DNA of 64,000 nt, taken from contig CBDCRW010000005.1 of NCBI GenBank assembly GCA_965221125.1, positions 640,001 through 704,000 on the forward strand. Direction: 5' to 3'. A program made the translations under genes and the position numbers. The notes under the pieces were generated by a model that saw only the letters and a list, made by a program, of their open reading frames with translations, searched no databases and was not told the origin of the DNA. Below are positions 36,723-55,033 of the stretch, one piece after another. This DNA comes from Alphaproteobacteria bacterium. Its GTDB lineage: Bacteria; Pseudomonadota; Alphaproteobacteria; UBA828. The stretch's first letter is position 1; each line of letters begins with the position of its first letter.

Positions 36723-36897
36723 CTGGAGCGCGTCCGTCAACGCCGGACGCGCGATAGGCCGCGACAGCGGCCCGCCGCGAATGCGGCGCGCCCGCATCGT
36801 GCGCTCTGCGCGTCCCGCGCGACGGCGCCGGCTGAAAGCCGGCTGCCGTGAGCGACAGATGCTTAGAGCGTTTTCGTTTTGCACGAAAACGCTCTAA
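36723..36897. repeat. Palindromic intergenic mosaic element, copy 2
   Basis: Same modules as 24681-24830; terminal hairpin TTAGAGCGTTTTCGT..ACGAAAACGCTCTAA. Confidence 0.8.
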
Positions 36898-37277
36898 GCG
36901 GCGGCCAGCGCCTCGATCTCGATCAGCCAGCGCGCGTCGGCGAGGCCGGCGACGATGAGCAGCGTCGAGGCCGCCTGGTGGCCGGCCAGGTGGCGGTCCC
37001 TGATCTCGCGGTAGGCGCCGAGGTGGGCGCGGTCCACCAGCAGCGCGCGCACGATCACCAGGTTCTCCATGGTCATGCCGGCGGCGGCGAGCAGGGCGCG
37101 GATGTTGCGCCAGACCTGGTCGCTCTGCGCCTCGAAGCCGTCCGCCAGCGTGCCGTCCGGCGCGGCGCCCACCTGGCCCGAGATGTGGAGCCAGCGCTTG
37201 TCCGGCCCCACCTCCGCCGCCTGGCTGTAGAACGACGCGGGCGAGACGACGGTGTCCGGATTGTGCAGCGTGATCAT
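36894..37277 (-). CDS. Rid (YjgF/YER057c/UK114) family protein
   Basis: YSQAAEV, LHISGQVG, ASTLLIVAGL, IEIEALA. Confidence 0.88.
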   Translation of the reverse strand: MITLHNPDTVVSPASFYSQAAEVGPDKRWLHISGQVGAAPDGTLADGFEAQSDQVWRNIRALLAAAGMTMENLVIVRALLVDRAHLGAYREIRDRHLAGHQAASTLLIVAGLADARWLIEIEALAAA

Positions 37278-37458
37278 CGGTTACTCCCTGGCAGGCGCCA
37301 CAGCGGCGCGGCCCGTCATAGTGCCACGGAGGACAAGATTCGGAGAAGGAGCGGGAGATTCGATGCAGGGCGAGCGGCGCCGGACATTCGCGGTTCACTG
37401 ATCCTCCGTCTCCCGCTATCGTCCTGTCCGACGATGCGTCGTCCGCAAGGTCTACCGG

Positions 37459-37734
37459 ATGGACGAAATGGACATCACGGCATCCGATATCGAGGCCGCG
37501 CTGAAGCGCGAACTGAGGAACCCTCCGACCCCGGTCAGCTGGTGGGAGGTGGAAACCGGGGTCGACTGGGCGGACGACCCCGCAGTGTGGGTGTGGGTCT
37601 ATCTCACGGAAGAGGAGGTGGACTTCGAAACCCGAGACCTGCTGCGGAATACAGTGCGCGATCTGGTCCGCCGCGAGACCGAATCCTCGATGTTGGTCTA
37701 TGTTCGCTTCCGAGGGGCTTCGGAGGCCGCCTGA
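37459..37734 (+). CDS. Small acidic protein, putative MNT-like antitoxin
   Basis: 91 aa, DWADDPAVWVWV, YVRFR; directly upstream of a HEPN-like gene. Confidence 0.55.
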   Translation: MDEMDITASDIEAALKRELRNPPTPVSWWEVETGVDWADDPAVWVWVYLTEEEVDFETRDLLRNTVRDLVRRETESSMLVYVRFRGASEAA

Positions 37735-37739
37735 GTGTC

Positions 37740-38249
37740 GTGAGCCTGCATGTTGACCTGTTGCGGCAAGCCCGACAGCTTGCCGTCAAGGAGCCGCGGC
37801 GGCCCCTGCAGGCGAGCCTGCGCCGGGCAGTCTCGGCGTCGTACTACGCCCTCTTTCATCTGTTGGTCGATGAAGCGACGAAGCGCATGCTTCGTGGTCG
37901 CGACAGAGCCGCTCTCCGCCAGTGCCTGGCACGAGCGTTCGGTCACGCCGCAATGAAACAGGTCGCCCAGCAGTTTTCTGACAGCAAAGTTTCAACGAAG
38001 CTCTCTCCCGGGTTGGGCGGCCAACCCGTGCAACCCGAACTCGTTCGGGTTGCCAGCGCATTCGTCGAACTTCAGGGGGCCCGCCACGAAGCGGATTACG
38101 ACACGGCCCGTCGTTTCACCCGTCGTGAAGTTCTCGATTTCGTGGAGCGGGCGGAGCAGGCGTTTGCCGACTGGCACGGCGTCCGCGGGAGCATTCAGGC
38201 AGATACCTTCCTGACCGGGCTTCTCGCATTCGGAAACATGCGCAGTTGA
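37740..38249 (+). CDS. HEPN-like domain protein
   Basis: RRAVSASYYALFH and RHEADYD motifs; GTG start inside the 36879..38249 ORF. Confidence 0.7.
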   Translation: MSLHVDLLRQARQLAVKEPRRPLQASLRRAVSASYYALFHLLVDEATKRMLRGRDRAALRQCLARAFGHAAMKQVAQQFSDSKVSTKLSPGLGGQPVQPELVRVASAFVELQGARHEADYDTARRFTRREVLDFVERAEQAFADWHGVRGSIQADTFLTGLLAFGNMRS

Positions 38250-38426
38250 CAGTCAGGGGGATACTTGCGTTTCGGGAGTTTCGACAGACTTTGCCGAGGG
38301 GTCTGGGCGAGATTGGGGATCGGCAGTGCGTAGAAGCGCGACGCACTAATGCGATACGTCAGCATAACTTATAAGCGCCATAAGTGGATACTCTTGGACG
38401 CTATATGGCCATATCGAATAGGTTAT

Positions 38427-39879
38427 GGTTGTGTCCCCAGACGTGGTGTAGGAGCTCCCGCTACCCCCGGTAGCTGTGGGTAACCGGCTTGGCGCCGCGA
38501 CCGCCCTCGAGTCTGGTGGCGCCAAGCCGGTTATCCACAGCGGGGTGGCCATCGCGGTTCCGGTTTAGGGTTTGGGTGAATCCGAATCGACCCGAGCCTA
38601 AGGAGAACCACGATGACCGATGACAAGCTTACCCTGCGGACGCTGTTGGAGAAGAGCTCTGACGCCGATCTGCTGCGTGAGATGATCGCCTTCTCTGCGC
38701 AGCGCCTTATGGAGCTGGAAGTCGAGGGCCTGACCGGCGCCGAGCATGGCGCGCGGACGCCGGAGCGGATCAACCAGCGCAACGGCTACCGCGATCGGCC
38801 TTGGGAGACCCGGGCCGGCACGGTCGACCTGAAGATTCCGAAGCTCAGGAAGGGGAGCTACTTCCCCGGCTTCCTGGAGCCCCGACGGACGGCGGAGAAG
38901 GCGCTCACGGCGGTGATCCAGGAGGCCTACATCCAGGGGGTATCGACCCGCTCGGTCGACGAACTGGTTCAGGCCATGGGCATGAGCGGGATATCGAAGA
39001 GCCAGGTCTCGCGCCTTTGCGGGGAGATAGACGACAAGATCCGCAGCTTCCTCGACCGCCCGCTCGAAGGCGACTGGCCCTATCTCTGGCTGGATGCGAC
39101 TTACGTGAAGGTGCGCGAGGCCGGGCGCATCGTCCCGGTCGCGGTCACCGTGGCCGTCGCGGTCAACGACCAGGGCCGGCGCGAGATCCTCGGCATGGCG
39201 ATCGGCGCCTCCGAGGCCGAGACCTTCTGGACCGAGTTCCTGCGCTCGCTGACCAGGCGCGGCCTGCGCGGCGTGCAGCTGGTGATCTCCGACGACCACA
39301 AGGGCCTGAAGGCCGCCACCACCCGGATCCTCGGCGCCACCTGGCAGAGATGCCGCGTCCACTTCATGCGCAACCTGCTGGCCCATGCCGGCAAGCAGGG
39401 CCGGCGCGTCGTCTCCGCCTTCGTCGCCACCGCCTTCGCCCAGGACGATGCCGAGGCCGCTGCCGCCCAGTGGCGCCTGATCGCCGACCAGCTCAGGCCC
39501 AAGGCCTCCAAGCTGGCGGCCCTCATGGACGAGGCCCAGCACGACGTCCTCGCCTACATGAGCTTCCCCAAGGAGCACCGGGTCAAGCTTCACTCGACCA
39601 ACCCGCTCGAACGCGTCAACGGCGAGATCAAGCGACGCACCAACGTCGTCGGCATCTTCCCCAACGAGGACGCCATCACCCGCCTCGTCGGCGCCGTGCT
39701 GCTCGAGCAGAACGACGAATGGACCGTCGGAAGGAGGTACATGACGCTGGAATCGATCGCTCCCCTGAGCGACAATCCCACGATCAAGCTGTCCGCTGTG
39801 GCAGCCTGAATAACCCGGCCCTACCCGCCGGATGCCGCGTAAAGCGCGACGCTCTTACACCACTCCTCGGGACACGATC
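38427..39879 (+). mobile_element. IS256-family insertion sequence with 8-bp target duplication
   Basis: 26-bp imperfect IRs GGTTGTGTCCCCAGACGTGGTGTAGG / GATCGTGTCCCGAGGAGTGGTGTAAG; direct repeat TAGGTTAT at 38419-38426 and 39880-39887. Confidence 0.95.
38613..39809 (+). CDS. IS256-family transposase
   Basis: [54 protein letters not shown]. Confidence 0.97.
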
Positions 39880-40115
39880 TAGGTTATGTCCTGTCGGGAT
39901 TCGTGCCGGCCGGTCGGTGCCGCAGGCCTGCCGAACATGGAGTGACGGGCATGAAGAATTCGCGGTGTGTGGGCGTGCGAACGGGCGGGGACTCGCTTCG
40001 CCACAGGGCCAATTTTGACGCCGGCCGGCGGGCCCGCGACGGTGTCTGCAGAGCCTTGCGGGCATCCCGCGGAACGGGATCGGCCCCAGGTTCCGCCTGA
40101 CGGAATCCGACATCG

Positions 40116-41276
40116 ATGACTTCGGAACCGAGCATGCCGGCGGGCTCTTCGATGCCGCCCGTTTTCGTCACGGGTTCGGCCGGGCATGTCGGTGCCAACC
40201 TCGTGCGCCGGCTGCTCGACGAGGGCGTGCGGGTCCGGGTGTTGTTGAGACACGAGGACAACAACGAGGGCCTGGACGGTCTCGAGGTCGAACGCGTGTT
40301 CGGCGACATTCGGAATTTTGACGACACCAGGCGAGCGCTCGCGGGCTGTCAGGGTGTCTATCACTGCGCGGCCATGATCTCGACCATCGAAGGCAACCGC
40401 GCCCATCGCCGCGACATGTTCGAGTGCAACGTTCTCGGCACCCGCAACGTGCTGCGGGCGGCGCAGGAGGCGGAGGCCGGCCGGGTGGTCGTTACCGGCT
40501 CGTTCAGCGCGGTGGGATACGACCTGGACGATCCCTCCGCTCCCAGCGACGAGACGATGCCGTTCTACCCCATGGAGCGCACGATGCCCTACGAGCGCAG
40601 CAAGTCGCTCGTCGAGCAGGAGTGCTGGCGCGCGGCGGCAACGGGACAGGACGTGGTGGTCGCGACCTGCTGCGCGGTGGTCGGCGGCGCCGATTTCCTC
40701 CCCTCGCGCCTGGGGCGAACGCTCTGCGACTACACGAACGGCAAGCTCCGCGCCTATATCGATGGCGGTTTCGAGTTCGTCGCGGCCCGCGACATCGTCG
40801 AGGGGCACGTGTTGTGCATGCGCCACGGTCGCTCGGGCGAAAAGTACATCTTCAGCACCGAGTACAAGACCATTTCCGATATCCTGGATCTCTACGAGGA
40901 GGTCTCGGGCGTCCCGCGGCCGCGCCGGCGATTTCCGACCCGCCTCATGCTCGTCTTTGCCGAGATCGCGAGCTTCTATCTCAGCCGCTTTCACCCGGAC
41001 TTCCCCCAGCGCTTCACTCCCGGCGCCATACGCCTGTTGCGAAAGTGCCGCCACGCCGACGTCTCCAAGGCGAAACGGGAGCTCGGCTATCGGCCGACCG
41101 GCCTCCGCGCCGCGGTTCAGGAGGCCTACGCGTTTCACTACGGCCGCAACGCGATCGCGAACCCGCAGGCGAAGCGCCCGCGCGAGGACACCGCGAATCA
41201 CCGCGTCGCGCGAGAAGAGGACGATCCCGTGCCGGAGCGAGGCATGCGGACGATGGCGGGCGGGGGCGCGCCATGA
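40116..41276 (+). CDS. sdmB: NAD(P)-dependent extended SDR, 3-beta-HSD/SdmB-like sterol C-4 decarboxylase/reductase
   Basis: TGSAGHVG, HCAA, YERSK; first gene of sterol operon, coupled to Rieske oxygenase. Symbol inferred from context. Confidence 0.7.
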   Translation: MTSEPSMPAGSSMPPVFVTGSAGHVGANLVRRLLDEGVRVRVLLRHEDNNEGLDGLEVERVFGDIRNFDDTRRALAGCQGVYHCAAMISTIEGNRAHRRDMFECNVLGTRNVLRAAQEAEAGRVVVTGSFSAVGYDLDDPSAPSDETMPFYPMERTMPYERSKSLVEQECWRAAATGQDVVVATCCAVVGGADFLPSRLGRTLCDYTNGKLRAYIDGGFEFVAARDIVEGHVLCMRHGRSGEKYIFSTEYKTISDILDLYEEVSGVPRPRRRFPTRLMLVFAEIASFYLSRFHPDFPQRFTPGAIRLLRKCRHADVSKAKRELGYRPTGLRAAVQEAYAFHYGRNAIANPQAKRPREDTANHRVAREEDDPVPERGMRTMAGGGAP

Positions 41277-42370
41277 GGGCGGCGCCCGACGCGCCGCCCG
41301 GCTTCGAGGATGCCGGCAACCTGCGCCAGCAGGCCCGCGCCGCGGGCATGGACCCGAATTACTGGTATCCGGTCGAGGAAGTGAGGCGGATCAAGCCGGA
41401 GACGGTGATCGAGGTCGTCTTCTGGAAGCGTTCCATCGCGCTCTTCCGGGGAAAGGACGGCAATTTCCAGGCGGTCGAGGACCGCTGCGCGCATCGCCAG
41501 CTCAAGCTCTCCATCGGCGACGTGCAGGGTTGCCGGCTCGTCTGCGCCTACCATGGCTGGGAGTACGGCGGCGACGGCCGCCCCGCCGGGGTGCCCTACG
41601 ACGACCAGGGGCGGAGCTTCCCCAACCTTGCGCTCAGGACCTACCCGGTGAAGGTCCGCTACGGCCTGGTCTGGCTCTTCCCGGGAGATCCGGAGCAGGC
41701 GGAGGTGCGCCGGATCCCCGACATTCCCGAGCTCGAGGGACCCGGCCGCTGGGCCTGCGTGCCGCTCTGCTTCACCTGGTCGGCCCACCACTCGATGGTG
41801 ATCGACAATGTGAGCGACTTCACCCACGCCCATCTGCACCGCCGCTACCGGCCCTTCGACGGCGCCACGCTCACCCGCTGCGAGACCGTCGGCGACGACG
41901 TGCACCTCGCCTACGACACGAGCGTCGGGCGCGGGCGCATCTCCGGACTCTTCGTCGATCACGACCGGATCGACACCAATTGCATGGAGCTTTGCTACGA
42001 GTACCCCTACCAGTGGTCGAACACCGATGACGCGATCAAGCACTGGCTCTTCGTGCTGCCGGTCGACGAGCGCACGACCCGCGTGTTCTTCCTGTTCTAC
42101 TTCAAGTCGCTGAAGATTCCCCTGCTGCCGCTGCGCATTCCCCGCCCCGCCATGAACGCGGTCTTGAGGATCTCCAACCGCCTGCTCATCGCCCCTCTGC
42201 TCTCCCAGGACCAGTTCGCGCTGGAGGCGGAGCAGCAGGGATACGAGGAGCACTGGGACGCCCGCCCCGTCGAGTTCAACCCGGTGGTCAGGGCCTTTCA
42301 GAAGGTGACCGTGCGCAAGTGGCGGGAGCATCTCGCGCGCGAAGCGGAGAACGGCGATGCCGCCGCCTGA
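41273..42370 (+). CDS. sdmA: Rieske non-heme iron oxygenase, SdmA-like sterol C-4 methyl oxidase
   Basis: CAHR...CAYHGW Rieske ligands, DNVSDFTHAHLH mononuclear Fe motif; context in sterol operon. Symbol inferred from context. Confidence 0.75.
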   Translation: MRAAPDAPPGFEDAGNLRQQARAAGMDPNYWYPVEEVRRIKPETVIEVVFWKRSIALFRGKDGNFQAVEDRCAHRQLKLSIGDVQGCRLVCAYHGWEYGGDGRPAGVPYDDQGRSFPNLALRTYPVKVRYGLVWLFPGDPEQAEVRRIPDIPELEGPGRWACVPLCFTWSAHHSMVIDNVSDFTHAHLHRRYRPFDGATLTRCETVGDDVHLAYDTSVGRGRISGLFVDHDRIDTNCMELCYEYPYQWSNTDDAIKHWLFVLPVDERTTRVFFLFYFKSLKIPLLPLRIPRPAMNAVLRISNRLLIAPLLSQDQFALEAEQQGYEEHWDARPVEFNPVVRAFQKVTVRKWREHLAREAENGDAAA

Positions 42371-43457
42371 AGCGCTCGACCTCTCGTCGGCGCTCTCCTG
42401 CGGGACCCTGCTCGAGGCGGCGGCGATGGTGCTGGGGTTCATCGCCCTCCTCTTCGTGATGTCGCTGGTCCTGCCGGGTCGTCGCGTCACGGGCCCCGAT
42501 GCCGACGGAAACGAGCGCGTCTACAAGCTCAACGGCCTCTCCCTCTATCTGATCGTCATGATTGCGGCGTGTGGCGCGCAGGCCTCCGGCATTCTCTCCC
42601 TTTCGGTGCTGCATACCCACATTCTCGCCCTCTTCGTCGTGGCGAACGGATTCGCGTTCGCGCTCTCCGGCTGGCTCTACCTGCGCGGCGTGCGAAAGCC
42701 TCATGCATCGCCCCGGTCCTGGCGGGACTTCTTCTACGGCGTGGACGCCGCTCCGGCCTGGTTGGGGCTGGATCTGAAGCTCTTCAGCTATTGCCCCTCG
42801 CTCATCGGCCTCGCCCTCTTCAACGCATCGTTTGCCGCCGTGCAGTACGAGACCTACGGCGAGCTGACCCTGGGGATGATGCTCTACCAAGTCTTCACCT
42901 TCCTCTACGTGCTCAACTACTTCCAGTTCGAGCAGGGGATGATCCACACCTGGGACATCCTTCGCGAGCGCTTCGGGTGGATGCTGGTCTGGGGCGACTA
43001 CGTGCTGGTGCCCTTCTTCTACTGTCTCCCCGGCTGGTGGCTGGTTCACGCACCGGAGCCGCTGTCTCCGGCCGCCGCCGGCGGGATCGTCGTGCTCTTC
43101 GTTTTCGGCTTCTGGCTCTTTCGCGGGTCGAACCAGCAAAAGCACCGCTTCAAGCGCAATCCCGACGCCAGGATCTGGGGCAAGCCGGCCCGGACCCTGG
43201 ACGGGCGCCTGCTGGTCTCCGGATTCTGGGGCATCGGACGGCATCTCAACTATACCGGCGAGATCTGCGTCTATTTCTCGTTCGCCCTCACCACCGGGTT
43301 TAGCTCCTGGGCTCCCTTCCTGTTGCCGGTATGGCTGGCGGGCCTGCTGTGGCACCGCTCGGGACGCGACGAGCGCCGCTGCCGCGCCAAGTACGGCGCG
43401 CTGTGGGAGCGCTATACCCAGCGGGCGCGCTTCGCGATGCTGCCGTTCATCCATTGA
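42357..43457 (+). CDS. ERG4/ERG24-family sterol reductase (probably Delta14-reductase)
   Basis: YKLNG, TWDILRERFGWMLVWGD..VPFFY, LLVSGFWGIGRHLNYTGE, RDERRCRAKYG. Confidence 0.9.
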   Translation: MPPPEALDLSSALSCGTLLEAAAMVLGFIALLFVMSLVLPGRRVTGPDADGNERVYKLNGLSLYLIVMIAACGAQASGILSLSVLHTHILALFVVANGFAFALSGWLYLRGVRKPHASPRSWRDFFYGVDAAPAWLGLDLKLFSYCPSLIGLALFNASFAAVQYETYGELTLGMMLYQVFTFLYVLNYFQFEQGMIHTWDILRERFGWMLVWGDYVLVPFFYCLPGWWLVHAPEPLSPAAAGGIVVLFVFGFWLFRGSNQQKHRFKRNPDARIWGKPARTLDGRLLVSGFWGIGRHLNYTGEICVYFSFALTTGFSSWAPFLLPVWLAGLLWHRSGRDERRCRAKYGALWERYTQRARFAMLPFIH

Positions 43458-43465
43458 GGCCGGCG

Positions 43466-44875
43466 ATGGCAAACCGAATTCACAGTCTGGATGCGCCGCG
43501 CTCGGCTCGGTTCCGGCCGCGCTCGGAGAACGCCGCTCCCATGCTCGCGGGCGGGTGGCCGTTGCTCGGCCATCTGCCGGAATTCCAGAGGGATCCGGTC
43601 GCCATGTTGAGCCGCGGCTGGCGCGAGCATGGCGCGCTCTTCCGCTTCCGGCTCGGGACCCGCGCTTTCGTTCTCTTCGCCGGGCCCGAAGCCCACGACT
43701 TCTATTTCAGGGCACCCGAGGAACAGCTGAACGCCAAGGCCGTCTACCGCTTCACCGTGCCCATCTTCGGACGCGGCGTGGCCTACGACACCTCCCCGGA
43801 GATCATGTCGGAGCAGCTGGGCTTTCTCTTTCCGGCGCTCCGCGAGGCGGCCATGCGCAGGTTCGCCCTCGTCATGTTCGACGAGGCGCGGCAGTTCGCC
43901 GACTCCCTGGGCAAGGAAGGGGAAATCGATCTGCCGCAGGCGATGAACGAGCTCACGGTCAAGATCGCCGGCCGCTGCCTGATCGGACAGGAAGTCCGCG
44001 ATCGGGTGGACGCCGGCTTTGCCGAGATCTACCGCGACCTGCAGAAGGGCATTAACACCCTGGGATTTTTCCTCCCTAGGCTTCCCGTCGCAGCGCATCG
44101 AAAGCGCGACAAGGCCCGGCGACGGGTGGCGGAGCTCTTCGGCGGGATCATGGCCGCGCGCCGGGATGCCGGGGCCAGCCCCGACGACTTCATGCAGACG
44201 CTCATGAACGCCCGCTACAAGAGCGGCCGCGCCCTCAGCGACGACGAGATCACGGGGATCCTGCTGACGGTGCTCTTCGCAGGCCAGCACACCAGCGCGG
44301 TGCTCGCGACCTGGATCGGCCTGGAGCTGCTCAGGGCGCCGGCGTACCTGGCACGGGCGAGAGACGAGGTGCGGGAGGTTTACCGCGAAGCAGGGTCCGT
44401 GAGCATCGACAGCCTCCAGCGCCAGCCGGCCCTGGAGAACGCCGTCCGCGAATGCGAGCGGCTGCACCCGCCGCTGATATTGCTGATCCGGAAGGTGCTC
44501 GAGCCCCTGCGCTACGGAGACCGCGTCGTGCCCGCCGGCACCATGGCGATGGTGTCGCCGGCGGTCTCTCACCGCCTGCCCCACATCTTCGAGGACCCGG
44601 AGCGCTTCTTTCCCGACCGCTTCGCCGCTCCGGCGTGCGAGGACAAGCAGCACCACTACGCCCTGATCGGCTTCGGCGGCGGCAAGCACGCGTGCATGGG
44701 CAAGAACTTCGCGTACATGCAGCTCAAGGCGATCTGGACCGTTCTGCTCGATCGCTTCGATTTCTCTCTCAGCGGCGCGTTTCCCCGTCCGAACTACGGC
44801 AGCTGGGTGACCGGGCCTGAGAGACCGTGCCGCGTCCGCTACCGTCGCCGCGCGCAGCCGAGCGCATTCTCATGA
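43466..44875 (+). CDS. cyp51: Sterol 14-alpha-demethylase cytochrome P450 (CYP51)
   Basis: VYRFTVPIFGRGVAYD (SRS1), FAGQHTS I-helix signature, ECER, heme motif FGGGKHACMG; start could alternatively be ATG 43541. Confidence 0.92.
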   Translation: MANRIHSLDAPRSARFRPRSENAAPMLAGGWPLLGHLPEFQRDPVAMLSRGWREHGALFRFRLGTRAFVLFAGPEAHDFYFRAPEEQLNAKAVYRFTVPIFGRGVAYDTSPEIMSEQLGFLFPALREAAMRRFALVMFDEARQFADSLGKEGEIDLPQAMNELTVKIAGRCLIGQEVRDRVDAGFAEIYRDLQKGINTLGFFLPRLPVAAHRKRDKARRRVAELFGGIMAARRDAGASPDDFMQTLMNARYKSGRALSDDEITGILLTVLFAGQHTSAVLATWIGLELLRAPAYLARARDEVREVYREAGSVSIDSLQRQPALENAVRECERLHPPLILLIRKVLEPLRYGDRVVPAGTMAMVSPAVSHRLPHIFEDPERFFPDRFAAPACEDKQHHYALIGFGGGKHACMGKNFAYMQLKAIWTVLLDRFDFSLSGAFPRPNYGSWVTGPERPCRVRYRRRAQPSAFS

Positions 44876-47800
44876 GCGCCGCCGCGTCGCGGCGTTACGA
44901 CGTGGCCATCGTCGGCGCGGGGCCGGTGGGGAGCCTGTGCGCGCTCGCTCACGCGCGGAAGGGCGCCCGGGTGGCCCTGCTGGAAGCGAATCCCAGGGCG
45001 TCCGAGCGCCTGGCGGGCGAATGGCTGCATCCGCCCGGCGTCCAGATACTGCGGCACTTCGGGATCGGGCCGGACACCCTGCCCCGCAGCACCGCGGGCA
45101 GGGGCTTCGTCGTGTTTCCCGATGACGGCTCGAAGCCGATCGTGCTTCCCTACATGAACGGCTCGCGGGGTCTGGCCTGCGACCATGCGGTGCTCGTCTC
45201 GAAGCTGCGGGACGCCATCGGGAACGAGCCGGACGTGGATTTCTTCGCCCCCGCGCGGGTCGGTGAAGTCGAAGACGGCCGGCTGGCCTTCACCAGCAAC
45301 GGCACGGTTCACACCGTCCGCGCCGCACGGATTATCGGCGCCGACGGCCGGGCCTCGATCGTGCGCCAGTCGCTCGGCCTGTCGACGGACCCGATGCTCT
45401 GCTCGCGCATGCTGGGGGTCACGGTGAGCGGTGTGAGCCTGCCCTTCGAAGGTCATGGGCATGTGCTGCTCGGCGGCCCAGGGCCGATACTCGCCTACGG
45501 CGTGGCAAACGATTGCGTCCGGATCATCGCCGATGTCCCGCTGGACCGCTGGTCACGCCAGGACCGGGTCGGCTTCCTGACGGAATCCTATGCCGCCCTG
45601 CTGCCGGAGACTCTCAGGCCGGCGTTCGTCGAGGCGCTGCGAGCGGGGCAATTCGACGTTGCAGCCAATCAGCTGCGGCCGCGCGTCACTTACGGCACCC
45701 CGCTTCGCGTGTTGATCGGCGACGCGGCCGGGCACTACCACCCCATGACGGCGGTCGGCATGACCCTCGGATTCGGCGATGCGCTCGCCCTCGCCGAGGG
45801 CGGGAGCTTTCGCGACTTCGCCGCCAGGCGCTTCCGGGCGACCCATGTGCCGGAGTTGCTCGCCATGGGGCTCTACGAGGTCTTCGCCGATCGTCGGGCC
45901 GAGGCGGTGGCGATGAAACACGCGGTCTACCGGGGGCTGCGAACGAGCTCCGATTACCGGGAGCGGACCTCGCGGATACTTGCCTGCGAAGATCGATCCG
46001 CGCTCGGGATGGGTCTCGCGTTTTTCGGAACGGCAATCCGGGCGGCGGCCGTGGAGATTCCGCTCTCCCTCCGCCAGTTCGCTCCGCGCCGGGGTCTGAG
46101 GATCTTCGGTGCGCTCGTCGTTCGTCTCTGGTGGCTCCTGCGTTGGGGTCTGCAGCTGCGCCGGTCAAGACGCCGGGGCGGGCGGAACGACGAGCGGGCC
46201 CTGGACAGCCTGGCCCGAGCACTCCTGCACTCCATGCCGTCGGGGCTCGACGCGGCCGGATCCGGCCGGCCGAAGGACTCCGAGGCGCCCGATGCCGGTC
46301 CGGCACTGGCGAGCGCGACGGCGCAGCTCCTCAGCCTCCAGGGCGAGGACGGCGGCTGGGAAGGCGAGATGGTCTGGTGCCCCATGCTCACCGCGCAATA
46401 CGTGCTGCTGCACCACATCATCGGCCGGCCGCTCGAGCCCGGCCGGCGCCGGCGCGTGCTGCGCTCCTTCGAACGGACCCGTCTCGAAGCAGGCTCCTGG
46501 GGCCTGCACGAGCACGCGTCGCCCCACCTCTTCGTCACCGCCATGGTCTACGTCGCGGCGAGGCTGCTCGGGGTCGAGCGTGACGATCCCCTTGTCGAGC
46601 CGGCCCGGCGCTTCATACAGGCCGAGGGGATCGTGGCCATTCCGAGCTGGGGAAAGTTCTGGCTGGCGCTGCTCAACCTCTACGACTGGCGCGGGGTCAA
46701 CGCCGTCCTGCCGGAGCTGTGGAGCCTGCCGCGGCGCATACCCTTGCATCCCTCCAACTGGTACTGCCACACGCGGCTCATCTACATGGCGATGGCGGCG
46801 GTTTACGCGCACCGCTTCCAGGCACCCGTCACGCCCCTGATCGCCGCGCTGCGGGAGGAGCTGTTCCCGCAAGGATTTGCGGAGGTAGATTTCTCCGCCG
46901 CCCGCAGTTGCCTGCGGGAGGCCGACCTCTACGCGCGGCCGAGCGTGTGGCTCAAGGCTGGATACAGGATTGCGCGCGTGTTCGATCGGCTCCACGGCAA
47001 GCGCCTGCGTGCCCGATGCACGGAGGCGATCGTCCGGCAGATCAGATGGGAGCTGCAGACCACCAGCCATACGAGCATCTCTCCGGTGAGCGGCCTTCTC
47101 AACATGCTTGCCCTGTGGCTGCGCGATCCGGACGACGCCGATCTGCACCAGGCGCTCGCGAAGCTGGACGGCTGGTTCTGGGAGGACGAGGAAGAGGGTG
47201 CGCGCGTCGTCGGCGCGAGAAGCGCCTCGTGGGACAGCGGCTTCGCGTTGCAGGCGCTGGCGGCGGCGCCCGCGTTCGACGGGGTAGAGGACGCGCTGCA
47301 GCGCGGCGCCGACTTCCTGCTCAGGCAACAGATTGCCGCCAGCTTCGACGGGTTTCGCGAGGCCTATCGAACCGACCCCAGGGGCGGCTGGTGCTTTGCC
47401 GGGGGATGGCATGGCTGGCCGGTGAGCGACTGCACTGCGGAGGCGGTGCTCGGACTTCACGCTGCCGGTCGCGGCGCTCTGCACGCGAGCGCGTTGCGCG
47501 ATGCGGTCGGGTTCATGCTGCGCTGCCAGAACCGCGATGGCGGATTCGGCAGCTACGAGGCGCGACGCGCGGCTTTCGGTCTGGAGTGGATGAATCCGGC
47601 CGAGATGTTCGGCGATTCGATGACCGAGCAATCCTATGTCGAGTGCACCGTGTCCTGCCTCGCGGCGCTCGCCGCCTGCAGGGAGGACGTTCCGCAAATC
47701 GTGGATGGAGCCGTGACGGGCGCGATCGCCCGGGCCGATGCCTGGCTTCGCCGAACCCAGGCAAGCGACGGGTCGTGGCGCGGCGTGTGGGGGGTTCAGT

Positions 47801-48282
47801 TCATTTACGGAACCCTCTTCGGAATCAGGGGTCTTCTGTCGGCCGGAGCCGGCCCCGACGATCCGGCGCTTCGCTCGGCCTGCCGCTGGCTGCTGGAGCG
47901 CCAGCGGGAAGACGGCGGATGGGGCGAGCACCACAGCGGCTGCCTGACCGGCCGATACGTGCCGCACGAGGAAAGCCAGGTCGTCCAGACCGCGTGGGCC
48001 TTGATCGCACTCCTCGAGGCGAACGAATCGAACTGGACTGCGATTTCGCGGGGCGCCCGCTTCCTGCTCGACGCGCAGGACGCCGACGGGACGTGGCCCA
48101 GGCAGGACATGGCTGGCGTGTTCTTCCGAACGGCGCTCCTGGATTACGTGCTGTACCGACGGTATTTCCCGCTGCACGCGCTCGCTCTCTACGAGCGCCG
48201 CCGCCGCGAGCGGCTGGGTCTCGCCGCCGCCCCGCGCGCCGCCGACGCGCCTGCGGCTCCGTCCGAGGCGGCTGCGGCCTGA
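44872..48282 (+). CDS. osc: Squalene epoxidase - oxidosqualene cyclase fusion protein
   Basis: N-half: IVGAGPVG, RLAGEWLHPPG, GADG, IGDAAGHYHPMTAVGMT. C-half: QW repeats (QGEDGGW, QNRDGGF, QASDGSW, QREDGGWGE, QDADGTW), WYCHTR, GWPVSDCTAE; continuous frame. Confidence 0.93.
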   Translation: MSAAASRRYDVAIVGAGPVGSLCALAHARKGARVALLEANPRASERLAGEWLHPPGVQILRHFGIGPDTLPRSTAGRGFVVFPDDGSKPIVLPYMNGSRGLACDHAVLVSKLRDAIGNEPDVDFFAPARVGEVEDGRLAFTSNGTVHTVRAARIIGADGRASIVRQSLGLSTDPMLCSRMLGVTVSGVSLPFEGHGHVLLGGPGPILAYGVANDCVRIIADVPLDRWSRQDRVGFLTESYAALLPETLRPAFVEALRAGQFDVAANQLRPRVTYGTPLRVLIGDAAGHYHPMTAVGMTLGFGDALALAEGGSFRDFAARRFRATHVPELLAMGLYEVFADRRAEAVAMKHAVYRGLRTSSDYRERTSRILACEDRSALGMGLAFFGTAIRAAAVEIPLSLRQFAPRRGLRIFGALVVRLWWLLRWGLQLRRSRRRGGRNDERALDSLARALLHSMPSGLDAAGSGRPKDSEAPDAGPALASATAQLLSLQGEDGGWEGEMVWCPMLTAQYVLLHHIIGRPLEPGRRRRVLRSFERTRLEAGSWGLHEHASPHLFVTAMVYVAARLLGVERDDPLVEPARRFIQAEGIVAIPSWGKFWLALLNLYDWRGVNAVLPELWSLPRRIPLHPSNWYCHTRLIYMAMAAVYAHRFQAPVTPLIAALREELFPQGFAEVDFSAARSCLREADLYARPSVWLKAGYRIARVFDRLHGKRLRARCTEAIVRQIRWELQTTSHTSISPVSGLLNMLALWLRDPDDADLHQALAKLDGWFWEDEEEGARVVGARSASWDSGFALQALAAAPAFDGVEDALQRGADFLLRQQIAASFDGFREAYRTDPRGGWCFAGGWHGWPVSDCTAEAVLGLHAAGRGALHASALRDAVGFMLRCQNRDGGFGSYEARRAAFGLEWMNPAEMFGDSMTEQSYVECTVSCLAALAACREDVPQIVDGAVTGAIARADAWLRRTQASDGSWRGVWGVQFIYGTLFGIRGLLSAGAGPDDPALRSACRWLLERQREDGGWGEHHSGCLTGRYVPHEESQVVQTAWALIALLEANESNWTAISRGARFLLDAQDADGTWPRQDMAGVFFRTALLDYVLYRRYFPLHALALYERRRRERLGLAAAPRAADAPAAPSEAAAA

Positions 48283-48348
48283 TTCCCGGTCCCGAGCGTC
48301 GGCGTTCCCGCAGAGGCGCGCGCGGCCGACAGATAACGCCCGCTTCGA

Positions 48349-49380
48349 TCAGTCGTGCGGGGGGCCGGGCTTGCGGGCCAGGAAAAAGAACATCGGCGTG
48401 AAGACGCCGGACCTGCCGCCGTCCACCAGCGCGTCCGCCGCCGCGTTCAGGAGCGTGCTGACCGCGCGGGAGCCCTCGGGAAAGAGCCGAAGCCGTTCGC
48501 CCACCCGCAAGGTCAGGTTGGTCAGCGCGCGGCCGACGGGCGTGCGCGGAAGACTCGAAAGACTGAGGTCACGACCCTGCAAGGCACGATACCAGGGCAT
48601 CTCCGGGTCCGCTTCGGGCGCGCGGTCGCGCGCGTCCAGGAGCTCGAATCCCGCCGTCCGCAACGCGGCGGAAACCTGCGACGTGGAAGCGATGTCCGGC
48701 AGCGCATCGCCGACCATGATGTCGTTCCTGATTCGCCGATGCTCCGCGTTGGCTGAATCGAATTTCTCGGTGAGGCACCAGTCGTAGCCCGCGAAGCAGG
48801 CTCCGGGACGAAGCACACGCAGGATCTCCCGGAACGCCGCTGTCTTGTCGGGCGCGTGGGGCATGGACTCGATCGCAATGGCAGCATCGTAGCGGTCGTC
48901 TTCCTCGGGAATCTGCATGTAGTCGCCGTGAATGAAGCGGCATAACGACCGGACATCCCGGGTGTGAAGTTTGGCGCGCTCGATCTGGTAGGCGTTGTTG
49001 TTGATTCCGACAAAGCTGGCCCCGGAATGGCGGGCCAGATTGCCCGTCGGCCCGCCGACACCGCAGCCGACATCGAGCACGTGCATACCCGGCTTCAGGG
49101 ACAGCCTTTCGGCCAGAAAATGCTGGTGCCGGAGCAGCGACGCCTTGAAGCTCTCGCCCCGCCTTCGGGGAGCGAAGTGAAAGGACTGGCCCCAACCGAA
49201 CTCATAGAAATCGGTCACCAGATCGTAGTAGCGATTCACGAACGAGCGATAATGCTCCTTCCTGCGCTCCAGGCCGGCATCGTAGATTTCGGTGTATCCG
49301 TCGACCGTGGACCTTACTTCGTCCGGGGCGAGATTCGCGAGGGTGCGCGCTTTCGATCGTGCGCCGGAGGTGCGATTCAT
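48349..49380 (-). CDS. smt: Sterol C-24 methyltransferase (SMT/ERG6-like)
   Basis: YYDLVTDFYEFGWGQSFHFA (SMT region I), LDVGCGVGGP, GINNNAYQ, IESMPHAP, GYDW, LVDGGRSGVFTPMFFFLARKP. Confidence 0.92.
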   Translation of the reverse strand: MNRTSGARSKARTLANLAPDEVRSTVDGYTEIYDAGLERRKEHYRSFVNRYYDLVTDFYEFGWGQSFHFAPRRRGESFKASLLRHQHFLAERLSLKPGMHVLDVGCGVGGPTGNLARHSGASFVGINNNAYQIERAKLHTRDVRSLCRFIHGDYMQIPEEDDRYDAAIAIESMPHAPDKTAAFREILRVLRPGACFAGYDWCLTEKFDSANAEHRRIRNDIMVGDALPDIASTSQVSAALRTAGFELLDARDRAPEADPEMPWYRALQGRDLSLSSLPRTPVGRALTNLTLRVGERLRLFPEGSRAVSTLLNAAADALVDGGRSGVFTPMFFFLARKPGPPHD

Positions 49381-49545
49381 CCGTGCATCTTGCCAGAGCC
49401 GCACGTCGTCCCCAAGACCGGCGTGTTGCGGGTTCCAGCGCTTCGCTTCATGTCACCGATACGGACCGCGTCCGGGGTGCCGCCCTCTCCGCGGGGTACA
49501 ATGCGGCAAGCCTCAGCACCGGCGTATCCGAGAGGAGCGAATCGC

Positions 49546-50280
49546 ATGATCGAAAGGCAAGCGGACCGAGGCCCATGCGAATCCGGCACTCACCGGACCT
49601 GGCTGGCAATCCCGCCGGTGGTGTTCGCCGGGTCGATCATCGCGATTCTGACAGCGGCCGGCATCGGTGCGCGCTACGGCGTTCGTGGCGATTTCGACGT
49701 CATTCATGCACTCCTGATGCTCTTCTTTTCGATCAACCTGTTGATATGCCACTGGGAGGTGTGCCTCTTCTTCAGGCGGGATTATGTCGAGAAGCGTGCC
49801 GAATACTGGCGTGAGCGCCGAGACGAAACAGGCCGGACATCGGCCGTCGAATTCCTCACCGGAAGGGTTCCGTTGACGCGAATATTGTCGTCGACGGTAT
49901 GGGCCGACGTCTGGGCTACCTATTCCCAGTTCGACGGTTCCTACGCCGACCGGCGCACGTACGGCTACAACGTGGATATCGCCAACGGCTTCGTAACGCC
50001 GGTGCCGACGCTGATCCTCTTCGCCGCCTTCACCGTCGATTTCCTGCCCGCCCTCGTCGCCGGCATCGTCGGGGCGATGCTGTTCTGGCAGCTGACCTAC
50101 GCGACCTCGGTCTATTGGGTCAGCTTTTTCGTGGCCAAGCGGCAAAGACGCATCGGCCGCAAGGATATGTACATCTACATCTGGGGACTGAATTGCCCGT
50201 GGGTGCTGTTCGCCCTGCTGGGCCTCTACGTCTCCATTCGCCTGATTCTTGACGGCAACTACAGCGTTCTCGGCCATTGA
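49546..50280 (+). CDS. Membrane protein, EBP/EXPERA-like (candidate sterol Delta8-Delta7 isomerase)
   Basis: About 5 TM segments; HWE, VWATYSQFDGSYAD and GLNCPW resemble EBP W.EY..DSRY and N..W; RBS gaggag. Confidence 0.55.
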   Translation: MIERQADRGPCESGTHRTWLAIPPVVFAGSIIAILTAAGIGARYGVRGDFDVIHALLMLFFSINLLICHWEVCLFFRRDYVEKRAEYWRERRDETGRTSAVEFLTGRVPLTRILSSTVWADVWATYSQFDGSYADRRTYGYNVDIANGFVTPVPTLILFAAFTVDFLPALVAGIVGAMLFWQLTYATSVYWVSFFVAKRQRRIGRKDMYIYIWGLNCPWVLFALLGLYVSIRLILDGNYSVLGH

Positions 50281-50430
50281 TCGCGGCTTCCCCCGGAACA
50301 ACGCCGATCGAGGGTAATCCTTCGGTCATAGAGTGATGGCATGTTGGGCGTTGACATCAACGACCGCGCCTGGAGACGCGCTCGGTAGGAATTGCTGGTA
50401 ACGAATTTCGCCATGCGCTAGCGTGAGTGC

Positions 50431-52716
50431 ATGGCGATTCGCGACGCGTCTGCCGCGGCACACCTCTCGCTGGTCGAGGGGTCTGACGGTCCATGGTCTT
50501 TTCCTCCTGATAATCCGTCCTCCGAAGAGCCGGACTGGCGATCCCTGTCCGAGCGGGCGCACGCCCGTGCGGAGAGCGAGGGGGCGCGGGCAGACGCGGC
50601 TGAAGCGCGCATCCAGGAACTGCTCGGCGATATCCGTCGGCTCCGCGCTTCTTTGCGCAAAACGGGAGCAGCCGGAAGTACGGGGGAGCCGCTGCCGAGG
50701 GGTGCCCGTGGAGCGCACAAAGCGCCGCGAAGATTGCGACGGAACGACACCATCGGCTCGCTGCATGTGGAGAACGCCGAACTGCGCGAGGAGGCCACAA
50801 CGCTGCGCAAGGCGGCGGGTGCGGCACAGACGTCGCTCTCCAGGAAAGACGCCCGGCTGCTCAAGGCCCGGGAACGTTCGCAGGCCCAAAGGAGCACGAT
50901 CGAGGAGCTGCGCCGGCAGGTCCGTTCCCTGGAAAGGCAGGTCGCCCGGCAGAGCCGCGACCTGGAGGAGGCGGAAAGCCGCAGGCAGACTATCCGTGAT
51001 CTCTCCCGCGAGAACGCGGAACTCCGTGGAGCACTCAGGGATTGGCGCGACCAGGAGGCCACCATCGAATGGTTCGACGGCCGCGTCAGCGAGCTGGAAT
51101 GTGCCCTGGACGAGGCCGCAGACGAGAGGCGGTGGATGGAGGCCGATCTTGCCGATCGCCCTCTGTTGCCCGTGGCCTTCGAACGACTGCGCACCCAGGA
51201 GAAGACGATCCAATCGCTCACCGAGAAGATCCAGTCCCTCTCCGAGAAAAACGAGCGGTTGCGGGCCCGGATCACGGACCTGGAGGCGACGGTTGCCAGG
51301 CACCGTGCGAGCAGGGCCGTGCTGTCCAAGGCACTGTTCGGCAGCAAGAGCGAGCAGCAGGAGAAGCCCAGCACGGGGCGCAAGCGCGGCCAGCAGCGCG
51401 GCGCTCCCGGCCACGGCCGTACCCCGCGGCCCGGGCTCGAGGAGCGCACCGACAAGCGCAACCCGCCCAAGGACGCGCGCGCGTGCTCCTGTTGCGGCAA
51501 GCCCTATGTCGCCAACGGCGAGCACGTCTCGACCATCATCGAGATCGAGGTCAAGGCCCACAAACGCAGGATCGTCCGCCCCCGCTGGCGCCGGGGTTGC
51601 GACTGCCCGTCCTCGCCCCTGGAAGTGACGGCGCCCCCGCCGCTGCGCCTGTTCCCCAGGACACCCTACGGAACCAGCGTGTGGGCGAGCTTCCTCTACG
51701 AGCGCTACGCCTCTCTGCGGCCCCTCAGCCAGGTCTCCGCGTGGCTGTCCGGCCTCGGTCTGCCGATCGCTGCCGGCACCCTCGCCGGCAGCGTGGAGCG
51801 CTTCATTCCTGTGTTCGAGCCCGTGGCGGACGCGATCCTCGCGCACCAGAACCAACAGGCGGTCCGTCACGGCGACGAGACCGGCTGGCGTATCCAGTCG
51901 CTGCGCGAGATCGGCCGCTCCAACCGCGCGTGGCTGTGGAACTCGGTCAGCGAGGATGCGGTCTACTTCCACTGCGACCCCTCGCGCTCGGCCGAGGCCG
52001 CGAAGACGTTGTTCGGCGATACCGCCGTCGTCGTGTTCGTGGTCTGCGACCGCCTCTCCAGCTACAAGAAGATGGCGCGCGACCTCGACGGCAAGGTGAT
52101 CCTCTGCTTCTGCTGGGTCCATCAACGGCGGGACTTCATCCAATGCGCGGCCAGCCACAATCGGCTGACGGACTGGTGCCAGAGTTGGATCGAGCGCATC
52201 GCCTCGATCTACAGCCTGAACAAGGCGCGGCTGCGGCATTACGACCCCGCTCTGGAGCGCCAGACGCCACAGTTCGACGCCGCACAGAGAGAGTTGGAGA
52301 AGGCCGTCGACAAGCTGTTCGCGGACGCAAAAGCGGAACTGGCCGGCCTGCCGGCCGGCTCGCGCGAGGCCAAGCCGCTGCGCTCGCTGCTCAACCACCG
52401 CGAGGGGTTGTGCGTCTTCGTCGACAACCCGCAGGTGCCCATGGACAATAACGCTGCCGAGCGGGCGTTCAGGAAAGCGGTCATAGGACGACGCCTCAGC
52501 TTCGGATCCGACAGCGAGGACGGCGCGAAGTTCACGGCAATCATGTACTCCGTCGTCGGCACCCTCGCCATGAACGGCATCGATGTCCGGCGCTGGCTGG
52601 AGGCATGGCTGAAGACCTGCGCGAAGAATGGCGGCAAACCGCCGGACGACTTGTCGCCCTGGCTGCCGTGGTCGATGAGCGAGAAGCGAAGGCGCAAGTT
52701 CACGGCGCCGGGATGA
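50431..52716 (+). CDS. IS66-family transposase with extended N-terminal coiled coil
   Basis: LFGSKSE, GAPGHGR, CSCCG zinc finger, HGDETGW, VCDRLSSY, CWVHQRRDF, DNNAAERAFR. Confidence 0.93.
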   Translation: MAIRDASAAAHLSLVEGSDGPWSFPPDNPSSEEPDWRSLSERAHARAESEGARADAAEARIQELLGDIRRLRASLRKTGAAGSTGEPLPRGARGAHKAPRRLRRNDTIGSLHVENAELREEATTLRKAAGAAQTSLSRKDARLLKARERSQAQRSTIEELRRQVRSLERQVARQSRDLEEAESRRQTIRDLSRENAELRGALRDWRDQEATIEWFDGRVSELECALDEAADERRWMEADLADRPLLPVAFERLRTQEKTIQSLTEKIQSLSEKNERLRARITDLEATVARHRASRAVLSKALFGSKSEQQEKPSTGRKRGQQRGAPGHGRTPRPGLEERTDKRNPPKDARACSCCGKPYVANGEHVSTIIEIEVKAHKRRIVRPRWRRGCDCPSSPLEVTAPPPLRLFPRTPYGTSVWASFLYERYASLRPLSQVSAWLSGLGLPIAAGTLAGSVERFIPVFEPVADAILAHQNQQAVRHGDETGWRIQSLREIGRSNRAWLWNSVSEDAVYFHCDPSRSAEAAKTLFGDTAVVVFVVCDRLSSYKKMARDLDGKVILCFCWVHQRRDFIQCAASHNRLTDWCQSWIERIASIYSLNKARLRHYDPALERQTPQFDAAQRELEKAVDKLFADAKAELAGLPAGSREAKPLRSLLNHREGLCVFVDNPQVPMDNNAAERAFRKAVIGRRLSFGSDSEDGAKFTAIMYSVVGTLAMNGIDVRRWLEAWLKTCAKNGGKPPDDLSPWLPWSMSEKRRRKFTAPG

Positions 52717-53594
52717 CCGGCGCCATCGAGTGCCGCTACTACGGGCGCGACTTCACTTCGGAAGAGATGGCGCTGCTGCGCGCGCTCATCGCCGCCGACC
52801 CGCCCCTCAACCGCCATGCCCTGTCCAAGGAGTTCTGCCGGCGCATCGGCTGGGTCAAGCCTGACGGCGGGCTCAAGGACATGATGGCCAGGGTCACCAT
52901 GCTGGCCATGCACAAGGACGGTCTGATCACCCTGCCGCCGCCGAGATGGAAACCGGGTCCGCCAAAGCCCATCGTCTTCGGGCCTGACACCGAGCCGCCG
53001 CTCTTCCCCGCCCCCACTACCCTCGATGACGTTCGCCCGCTCGAGATGCGCACCGTCGTGCGCAACACCCGGGAGGGCAAGCTCTGGAACGAGTTCGTCG
53101 CCCGCTACCACTACCTCGGCTTCAAGACCCTGGTCGGTGCCCAGATGCGCTACGCCGTCCACGGCCGCGACGGCTGGCCGCTCGCCATGCTCGGCTTCTC
53201 CACCGCCGCCTGGAAGCTCGCGCCGCGCGACAGCTTCATCGGGTGGACGCCCGAGAAGCGCGAGAAAAACCTGCCGCTGGTGGTCGACAACCCGCGTTTC
53301 CTCATCCTGCCCTGGATCAAGATCCCAAACCTCGGCTCGCACATCCTCGCCATCGTCCGCCGCCGCCTGCCCGAGGATTGGATCGAGCGCTACAACACCA
53401 CGCCCGTGCTCGTCGAGACCTTCGTCCAGAGGCCGCCCTACACCGGCGCCGTCTACAGGGCCTCGGGATGGATCCATGTCGGAACCACACAGGGGCGCGG
53501 CCGCTATGACAGATACTCCCAAAGGGCCCTGCCGCAGAAAGACATCTGGCTCCGGCCCCTCCGAAAAGACTGGAAACGAGCACTCAACCGATGA
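52713..53594 (+). CDS. DUF4338 (DruA-like) domain protein
   Basis: RYYGRDF, RYHYLG, RDSFIGW, DNPRFLILPW, NLGSHIL, VETFV, GAVYRASGW; ATGA overlap with transposase. Confidence 0.85.
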   Translation: MTGAIECRYYGRDFTSEEMALLRALIAADPPLNRHALSKEFCRRIGWVKPDGGLKDMMARVTMLAMHKDGLITLPPPRWKPGPPKPIVFGPDTEPPLFPAPTTLDDVRPLEMRTVVRNTREGKLWNEFVARYHYLGFKTLVGAQMRYAVHGRDGWPLAMLGFSTAAWKLAPRDSFIGWTPEKREKNLPLVVDNPRFLILPWIKIPNLGSHILAIVRRRLPEDWIERYNTTPVLVETFVQRPPYTGAVYRASGWIHVGTTQGRGRYDRYSQRALPQKDIWLRPLRKDWKRALNR

Positions 53595-53808
53595 CATCTC
53601 GGTCCTCATCACGCACCATCACCCGGTGACCGAAGGGATTCGATCGAGGCGACCGGCCTCGTCATGCCTTCAGCTCGTTCAGCCGCTCGAACGGCCATGG
53701 CGCAAGCCCTGACCTTGGCGAGAAATGCGGTCTAACACCCTGTATTACAATCCTTATTCAGGAGGACCCTGCAACGCTGTGCCACAGTCCGATCGCTTGT
53801 GGTCACGG

Positions 53809-55011: not shown

Positions 55012-55033
55012 CCTTGGGTCCTCCTCTGGGCGG

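Follow-up and report, generated by a model that had tools for sequence, protein, structure and literature searches.

The stretch analysed here raises the question of whether two consecutive steps of sterol synthesis, the epoxidation of squalene and the cyclisation of 2,3-oxidosqualene, are genuinely carried by one bacterial polypeptide, and whether both halves of it are enzymes. The window, meaning the whole stretch of 64,000 nucleotides, comes from Alphaproteobacteria bacterium (GTDB lineage Bacteria; Pseudomonadota; Alphaproteobacteria; UBA828) and covers positions 640,001 to 704,000 of the forward strand of contig CBDCRW010000005.1 in NCBI GenBank assembly GCA_965221125.1. At 44872..48282 it holds a gene in which a squalene monooxygenase (SMO, squalene epoxidase) continues into an oxidosqualene cyclase (OSC). 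Judged from its frame, folds, motifs, conservation, gene context and distribution, the gene is real and conserved, and it is very probably bifunctional, with a rough probability of 0.8 for this reading.

Reading frame and domain layout

One open frame runs without interruption on the forward strand from a GTG at 44827 to the TGA ending at 48282. With the ATG at 44872 as start the gene has 1136 codons followed by TGA (44872-48282), and this start overlaps the stop of the upstream cytochrome P450 gene (ATGA). A preliminary description made from the sequence alone had placed an SMO and an OSC in a single 1136-residue polypeptide at these positions, and this was confirmed by the uninterrupted frame and by four Pfam domains: FAD_binding_3 at amino acids (aa) 9-308 (2e-20), SE (PF08491) at aa 154-393 (5.6e-24, 85.1 bits, above the cut-off of 20.1), SQHop_cyclase_N at aa 480-773 (9.6e-53) and SQHop_cyclase_C at aa 784-1108 (5.4e-54). 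The gene and its parts, with the evidence for each, are:

44872..48282, forward strand: fused squalene monooxygenase-oxidosqualene cyclase gene (open reading frame, Pfam, NCBIfam, phmmer)
44872..46182, forward strand: squalene monooxygenase unit, aa 1-437 (Pfam SE and FAD_binding_3, model against human SQLE 6c6n)
46183..46281, forward strand: tether, aa 438-470 (low predicted local distance difference test score, pLDDT; low identity; ends of stand-alone relatives)
46282..48216, forward strand: oxidosqualene cyclase unit, aa 471-1115 (TIGR03463, TIGR01787, match to human 1w6k)

Such a frame could arise as an assembly or sequencing artefact, two adjacent genes being merged where the junction has gained an indel or lost a stop, and the DNA is indeed of high G+C content, originates from a metagenome-assembled genome (MAG) and belongs to an operon in which overlapping stop and start codons are the rule, so that one error could merge two genes. 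Related loci were taken as the best 80 of 402 stretches encoding relatives, one genome per GTDB species, each with a match to the query that starts no later than residue 10 and ends no earlier than residue 1108. The re-derived frame is open in 79 of these 80 independent species genomes, closed chromosomes of 2-7 Mb included, with products of 1111-1179 aa. Full-length fused homologues were likewise abundant among proteins: a search of 5.8 billion gave 1220 matches among 8000 candidates scored, and the SE and both cyclase Pfam domains are present in all 120 clusters listed (69-94% identical), of which 119 measure 1104-1181 aa and one is a 996-aa partial. The join (45977-46290) is bridged without gaps by contigs of runs X1 (45345-46290, with zero differences), X5 (45855-46365) and X7 (45977-46290), which stem from three studies, bridging being judged on Logan contigs and not on reads. 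Neither a stop nor an indel separated the domains there, no insertion or deletion inside the fusion gene being listed in the bridging contigs, and only few small indels occur in the junction region across 80 aligned sequences. The artefact is thereby refuted for practical purposes. Only pieces 90-99% alike were obtained from the RNA run X20 (coral metatranscriptome, share 0.05), none over 45459-46280; they come from relatives and are uninformative on a transcript across the join.

The fusion is no singular oddity: across a large clade of symbiont MAGs it is the usual form, and it was already mentioned in the Methods of Brown, Olagunju, Giner and Welander (Nat Commun 2023, PMC10070321; bioRxiv 10.1101/2022.05.16.491679). 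The fusion is thus real and ordinary for its habitat.

The epoxidase and cyclase units

The motifs that had been claimed for both halves are present. In the epoxidase half, GAGPVG stands at aa 15-20 and the GD motif GDAAGHYHPMTAVGMTLG at aa 283-300, and residues G15, G17, G20, D284, H290, P291, G296 and T298 are invariant in a 43-sequence alignment (A1). An AlphaFold2 model was built from an alignment of 43 sequences, with a mean pLDDT of 72.4, and its aa 7-437 align with residues 122-571 of human SQLE (6c6n) with Z 36.4 and a root-mean-square deviation of 2.6 over 419 aa. SQLE is the best structural match; other flavin monooxygenases reach Z of about 31 or less and mostly align to about residue 377, with a few extending to 388-458 (PltA, Bmp2 and CndH to 415-458). 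Two long helices, aa 377-401 and 405-434, close the epoxidase in the model, and the C-terminal helical domain of human SQLE is described as membrane-associated by Padyana et al. (PMC6327030). Since aa 7-437 match the whole SQLE catalytic domain together with its helical domain, the Arg-rich/hydrophobic stretch belongs to the epoxidase. The region 46030-46300 (aa 387-477), earlier described as a linker, has the composition ascribed to it, Arg-rich/hydrophobic and then Ala/Pro-rich, while its first two thirds are epoxidase fold and not linker. No segment of transmembrane-grade hydropathy was found, the 19-residue Kyte-Doolittle maximum being 1.46 at aa 385-391; a membrane-spanning linker was dropped as a candidate on account of this low hydropathy, and amphipathic, surface-bound helices are preferred.

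The cyclase half scores above the cut-off of the broader squalene/oxidosqualene cyclase model TIGR01787 (502.5 bits, cut-off 322.7) and below that of the hopene cyclase model (273.2 bits, cut-off 431.1), and it matches human lanosterol synthase 1w6k in phmmer (1.9e-127). DCTAE is the catalytic acid motif of oxidosqualene cyclases, as opposed to DxDD in squalene-hopene cyclases, and it is found at aa 853-857 (window 47428-47442) within the wider string VSDCTAE (aa 851-857). In the human enzyme we take D455, C456 and C533 to be the catalytic acid and its partners, and H232 and Y503 presumably form the deprotonating pair. These five residues correspond by phmmer alignment to D853, C854, C925, H633 and Y895, all of them invariant in alignment A1. 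The modelled aa 471-1115 align with residues 69-727 of 1w6k (Z 31.6) and form the two-barrel triterpene cyclase fold over its full length.

Counter-evidence and alternative readings

Several findings weigh against the bifunctional reading, and they concern, in turn, the frame in the nearest relative, the active site of the epoxidase, the scoring of the cyclase, the tether, and the unfused relatives together with the literature. In the nearest species genome, L003, whose protein is 93% identical, an in-frame TAG stands at codon 650; it sits in the cyclase, away from the join, and is to be explained either by an error in sequencing or by function lost recently in this lineage. L003 (L003:8001-11351) is probably the same genome as G030, whose match (G030:C71:36752-40159) holds one TAG.

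In the epoxidase, Y195 and Q168 of human SQLE align by phmmer with F79 and H53, so the Tyr-Gln pair is replaced. More than 90% of activity is lost in the human Y195F mutant (PMC6327030), and a protein with only a catalytic cyclase might be envisaged, its epoxidase-like half being a degenerate membrane anchor, a regulatory domain or an oxidase of another substrate. To the replaced pair can be added, on the side of this alternative, a genome protein search, run without a dedicated SE-family search, that found no second squalene monooxygenase. The H/F pair is, on the other hand, present in 169 of 171 alignable bacterial homologues, including 123 of 125 stand-alone proteins; as the family norm it marks a bacterial family trait and not decay in the fusion, and the Tyr195-Gln168 pair may be eukaryote-specific rather than family-defining. 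The FAD and GD motifs are moreover invariant across 43 sequences of 63-88% identity, and the epoxidase half is kept at 54-95% identity per 20-residue block. A DCTAE cyclase also needs an epoxide, for which the same genome search, with the same limit, found no other source. A cyclase-only protein is accordingly judged very unlikely.

On the cyclase side, the best NCBIfam model, TIGR03463 (2,3-oxidosqualene cyclase, aa 484-1107), reached 752.5 bits where its cut-off is 851. The positions of human T381, C449 and V453, which we take to be those separating lanosterol from cycloartenol synthases, are occupied by A, H and V, a mixed pattern from which the product cannot be called. Lanosterol is the probable product as predicted from the surrounding genes, and cycloartenol or parkeol are also possible. 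That both halves are active on the way to something else, be it cycloartenol, parkeol, another oxidosqualene-derived skeleton or a diepoxide from the epoxidase, is a minority possibility, to which the mixed pattern at these positions and the TIGR03463 score lend some weight. It is opposed by downstream-acting genes that suit a lanosterol-type route (P450 at the CYP51 position, ERG24, SdmA/B and sterol methyltransferase) and by the lack of a cyclopropyl-isomerase family among the Pfam-scanned open reading frames at 36879-56035, where no dedicated search was run.

For the whole protein, the predicted template modelling score of the model is only 0.63. The tether, aa 438-470, consists of a short helix (440-450) followed by a Pro/Gly/Ser/Asp-rich loop, with pLDDT below 50 at aa 458-469, and it is the least conserved part of the protein, at 45-49% identity to the window against 70-95% in the domains. 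Hardly any indels occur in the span aa 381-480 among the 80 clade members, whereas in distant fused forms (39-53% identity) the span between two fixed anchors varies from 93 to 143 residues. The constant length within the sponge clade thus results from recent common ancestry, and fixed linker length as a sign of a rigid channel was rejected. Weak conservation, low model confidence and variable length all argue against a fixed inter-domain channel; a rigid channel is unsupported, and channelling, which the preliminary description had suggested, would be reasonable only as enforced membrane proximity. The stand-alone epoxidase P0141 (477 aa) covers query residues 1-463 and the stand-alone cyclase P0132 (665 aa) begins at 464, which places the join in the Pro/Gly/Ser-rich loop aa 456-470. 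From the model and these ends, the true join looks like a short, flexible and poorly conserved loop of about 12-30 residues.

Unfused relatives of both halves also exist: stand-alone SMOs, 460-479 aa long and 57-67% identical, lie on contigs that reach 4.9 Mb, and the databases contain the stand-alone OSCs P0131 and P0132; with such close unfused relatives the fusion is not obligatory. Finally, a literature search that did not extend to supplements and subscription journals turned up no paper on a natural SMO-OSC fusion that deals with its activity, its structure or its origin.

One protein or two, and the proposed mechanism

The same loop bears on whether a single protein is made. Two proteins might be made from the one frame, through internal initiation or because the chain is cut at aa 456-470, and the fusion would then serve co-expression only: the loop shows the lowest conservation and the lowest model confidence, stand-alone relatives end and start exactly there, and a Met at aa 455 is common, though not universal, in the clade. 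A conserved internal start with a ribosome-binding site did not turn up, although no search was aimed at one, and the frame stays open in relatives that range from about 64 to 94% identity, something that merely co-expressing overlapping genes would not call for. Two separate products are therefore unlikely, if somewhat less so than a cyclase-only protein.

In a single bifunctional protein, the N-terminal flavin monooxygenase would convert squalene, O2 and reducing equivalents to 2,3-oxidosqualene, and the Asp of DCTAE in the C-terminal cyclase would protonate the epoxide and start cyclisation to a protosterol. The join would represent two formerly neighbouring genes fused end to end via a short flexible loop. 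Both units are predicted to be monotopic membrane enzymes that the tether would hold at 1:1 on the same membrane face; side by side there, the hydrophobic epoxide would travel only a short way, the effect of the tether being proximity and not a closed tunnel. Together with the operon and the genome's own squalene synthase-type genes, the protein would feed the formation of C-4- and C-14-demethylated, side-chain-methylated sterols.

It is tentatively proposed, at odds that remain well on the unfavourable side, that the fusion, far from being a neutral accident, works as a self-contained module from squalene to protosterol in which the short tether keeps the two enzymes co-localised at 1:1. Were this so, escape or over-oxidation of the epoxide would be limited, the first oxygen-dependent part of sterol synthesis would be transferable as one gene, and the fusion would have aided the spread of the sterol cluster among at least seven bacterial phyla inside sponges. 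The squalene epoxidase would also be hidden from annotation-based surveys, and bacterial de novo sterol capacity in sponges would be under-counted.

Operon and genomic neighbourhood

The fusion is the last gene of a compact operon of five, in the order sdmB-sdmA-ERG24-CYP51-fusion, and with start/stop overlaps at three of the four junctions the operon is predicted to be translationally coupled. The neighbouring features are:

38613..39809, forward strand: Mutator-family transposase, upstream flank of the cluster (Pfam PF00872, 7.3e-122)
40116..41276, forward strand: SdmB-like NAD-dependent reductase/dehydrogenase, C-4 demethylation (NF052578 SdmB; Pfam Epimerase and 3Beta_HSD)
41273..42370, forward strand: SdmA-like Rieske oxygenase, C-4 demethylation (NF052579; Pfam Rieske and VanA_C)
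42357..43457, forward strand: ERG4/ERG24-family sterol C-14 reductase (Pfam PF01222, 7.5e-69)
43466..44875, forward strand: cytochrome P450 at the CYP51 position, named after Kelly et al. (Pfam p450, 1.3e-58)
48349..49404, reverse strand: sterol C-24 methyltransferase, convergent with the fusion (Pfam Sterol_MT_C, 4.8e-21, and methyltransferase domains)
50431..52716, forward strand: IS66-family transposase, downstream flank of the cluster (Pfam PF03050, 2.2e-53)

Two of these names rest on matches below cut-off: NF052578 (SdmB) gave 7.9e-86 and 289 bits with the 40116-41276 protein, and NF052579 (4beta-methylsterol monooxygenase), the best NCBIfam match of 41273-42370, gave 8.2e-118 and 393 bits, the cut-off being 600 in both cases. 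Of the 80 related loci, 58 show all five genes in this order. Taken singly, the P450 lies directly upstream in 69 of 80, SdmA is found in 67, ERG24 in 66, SdmB in 65 and the sterol methyltransferase in 56. At 10 of the 80 loci the fusion stands without these sterol neighbours in the fetched flanks (L012, L029, L033, L039, L044, L049, L051, L058, L067 and L070), all three Acidimicrobiia among them; the downstream genes may lie elsewhere in these organisms, or the organisms may stop at the protosterol.

The same genome carries two tandem SQS_PSY genes (G000:C4:797170-798797, reverse strand), by their arrangement presumably HpnC/HpnD-like, so that squalene is available, and a separate canonical squalene-hopene cyclase (G000:C3:299308-301170, forward strand). 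Hopanoids and sterols are thus probably made from one squalene pool, as far as gene content can tell.

Between the methyltransferase and the IS66 element, 49546-50280 (forward strand) encodes a 244-aa protein with several hydrophobic helices and a lower G+C content (0.60-0.63), for which Pfam and NCBIfam searches gave no match. Homologues lie near the sterol methyltransferase in many loci (80% in L004, 75% in L005, 69% in L023 and in L031), and matches were obtained in 52 of 80 loci, some of these being merely the antisense shadow of the methyltransferase gene. Its language-model features resemble those of clusters in which 20% of members have an EBP (sterol delta8-delta7 isomerase) domain, and the product can be offered, as a lead only, as a candidate for a missing sterol-modifying enzyme. 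A homologue of DruA (Druantia defence) follows the IS66 element at 52605-53594.

Distribution and horizontal transfer

By the titles of the MAGs that carry the loci, 54 belong to Alpha- and Gammaproteobacteria, 7 to Nitrospirota, 3 each to Binatota and Acidimicrobiia, 2 each to Acidobacteriota and Thermodesulfobacteriota, and 1 each to Nitrospinota and Rhodothermota, with 6 given without rank; L003, with its in-frame stop, was left out of these counts and of the tree. Identity to the window protein is still 64-77% in other phyla, in MAGs titled Nitrospirales, Binatia, Acidimicrobiia, Bryobacterales, Rhodothermales, Nitrospinaceae and Thermodesulfobacteriota. Mapped on a FastTree tree, the eight phylum labels require 8 changes, the minimum being 7, and the copies of each phylum mostly form one group; these groups are far too alike to descend from a common bacterial ancestor. 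The full-length fusion is present in 8 of 21 genomes of the genus to which the window belongs, and it was found in none of 28 genomes from 13 other genera of the order, where only a cyclase at about 30% identity occurs.

Record titles among L003-L082 point to sponges, for example Spongia_Bin9, Porisulfidus and Poriferihabitaceae. The 20 runs that contain the stretch comprise 11 sponge metagenomes, 8 DNA runs with coded organisms and one RNA coral metagenome. The patchy presence within the genus, the identity across phyla and the flanking transposases point to an acquired accessory cluster, in agreement with Kelly et al. (Microbiome 2022, PMC9531527), who report that 115 of 537 sponge MAGs from 10 phyla carry the cluster, with gene trees in conflict with the genome tree and transfer as their explanation. 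With habitat taken from titles and run labels, the cluster is thus read as an accessory trait that sponge-associated bacteria have gained by horizontal transfer.

Wider family and origin of the fusion

Beyond the clade, a set of 1.84 billion representatives clustered at 50% was used. Besides the cluster of the window's own protein, eight others there show the fused architecture: P0122-P0127, which are 46-53% identical, and P0135-P0136, which are 39% identical. In the FastTree tree of cyclases all 22 fused domains share a clade of 26 in which 4 unfused members are nested, and in that of epoxidases 23 of 25 fused domains fall in one clade of 32 with 8 stand-alone members nested, where some rows counted as stand-alone may be cut gene calls, P0210 being nearly identical to the fused fragment P0128. 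A single origin of the fusion was considered and is not adopted, as one ancient fusion followed by later splits and several separate fusions cannot be told apart on these trees.

Other natural joinings of squalene-pathway enzymes were met in the same set. In 15 clusters at 50% identity (P0196, P0206, P0213, P0215, P0216, P0219, P0223, P0231, P0238, P0240, P0243, P0247, P0251, P0261 and P0262), proteins of 1034-1200 aa have an N-terminal squalene epoxidase, about 400 aa without Pfam match and a C-terminal squalene/phytoene synthase, a different natural joining of consecutive enzymes with the pathway order reversed. P0208 (1022 aa) has a squalene/phytoene synthase (29-327) before a full triterpene cyclase (388-1020), and groups with P0169 (852 aa) on the cyclase tree.

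Significance and comparison with known systems

If both halves work, a single natural gene would lead from squalene to a tetracyclic precursor of sterols, in a form that is bacterial and probably compatible with E. coli. This would be of use in triterpenoid engineering, a field in which fusions of squalene epoxidase and OSC are made artificially by hand. To specialists in bacterial sterols the fusion is unsurprising, and it has some biotechnological and geobiological relevance. It bears on the de novo origin of sponge 'biomarker' sterols in bacterial symbionts, which is a debated point, and the epoxidase that was missing from earlier annotation of the cluster is seen to sit inside the 'lanosterol synthase' gene. 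The fused, unfused and differently fused forms (SMO joined to squalene synthase, squalene synthase joined to OSC) make up a series that may serve as a natural experiment on the fusing of consecutive membrane enzymes.

The cultured sterol producers Methylococcus, Gemmata and myxobacteria are reported (Wei et al. 2016; Pearson et al. 2003) to have separate adjacent sqmo and osc genes; they share the two steps and the neighbourhood logic with the window, with two genes in place of one. Stand-alone relatives in the databases are 48-67% identical.

As far as the literature searched goes, a fusion of this kind has been noticed in print and never characterised. Brown et al. mention 'fused SMO/OSC homologs' in one Methods sentence, the sole mention found in the literature searched, with the SMO N-terminal to the OSC as in the window, in bacterial or metagenomic clusters with sdmA, sdmB and a sterol methyltransferase that include those of demosponge microbiomes. 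They differ in scope, since the N-termini were trimmed for their tree and the activity, structure, distribution and origin of the fusion are not treated in the text of the paper. The passages of Hoshino and Gaucher 2021 and Santana-Molina et al. 2020 with 'fused' or 'fusion' include none of relevance. In the main text of Kelly et al., the 'clusters of steroid genes' have the order DFR-like, hypothetical, ERG24, CYP51 and 'LSS/ERG7', with the sterol methyltransferase or FDFT1 on the opposite strand. The gene order in the window matches this order, and habitat, spread over many phyla and signs of transfer are alike. The difference is that the last gene is there called lanosterol synthase only; neither the epoxidase half nor the first oxygen-dependent step that it stands for is reported, and the words 'fused', 'SQLE', 'ERG1', 'monooxygenase' and 'epoxidase' are absent from that main text.

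The closest structural counterparts are human SQLE (6c6n), for which NADPH-cytochrome P450 reductase is the electron donor (PMC6327030), and human lanosterol synthase (1w6k). With these the window protein shares the folds and most hallmark residues. It differs in the exchange of Y195/Q168 for F79/H53 and in having no match for residues 1-121 of human SQLE and residues 1-68 of the human cyclase, and the two enzymes that are separate proteins in human are joined in one chain in the window.

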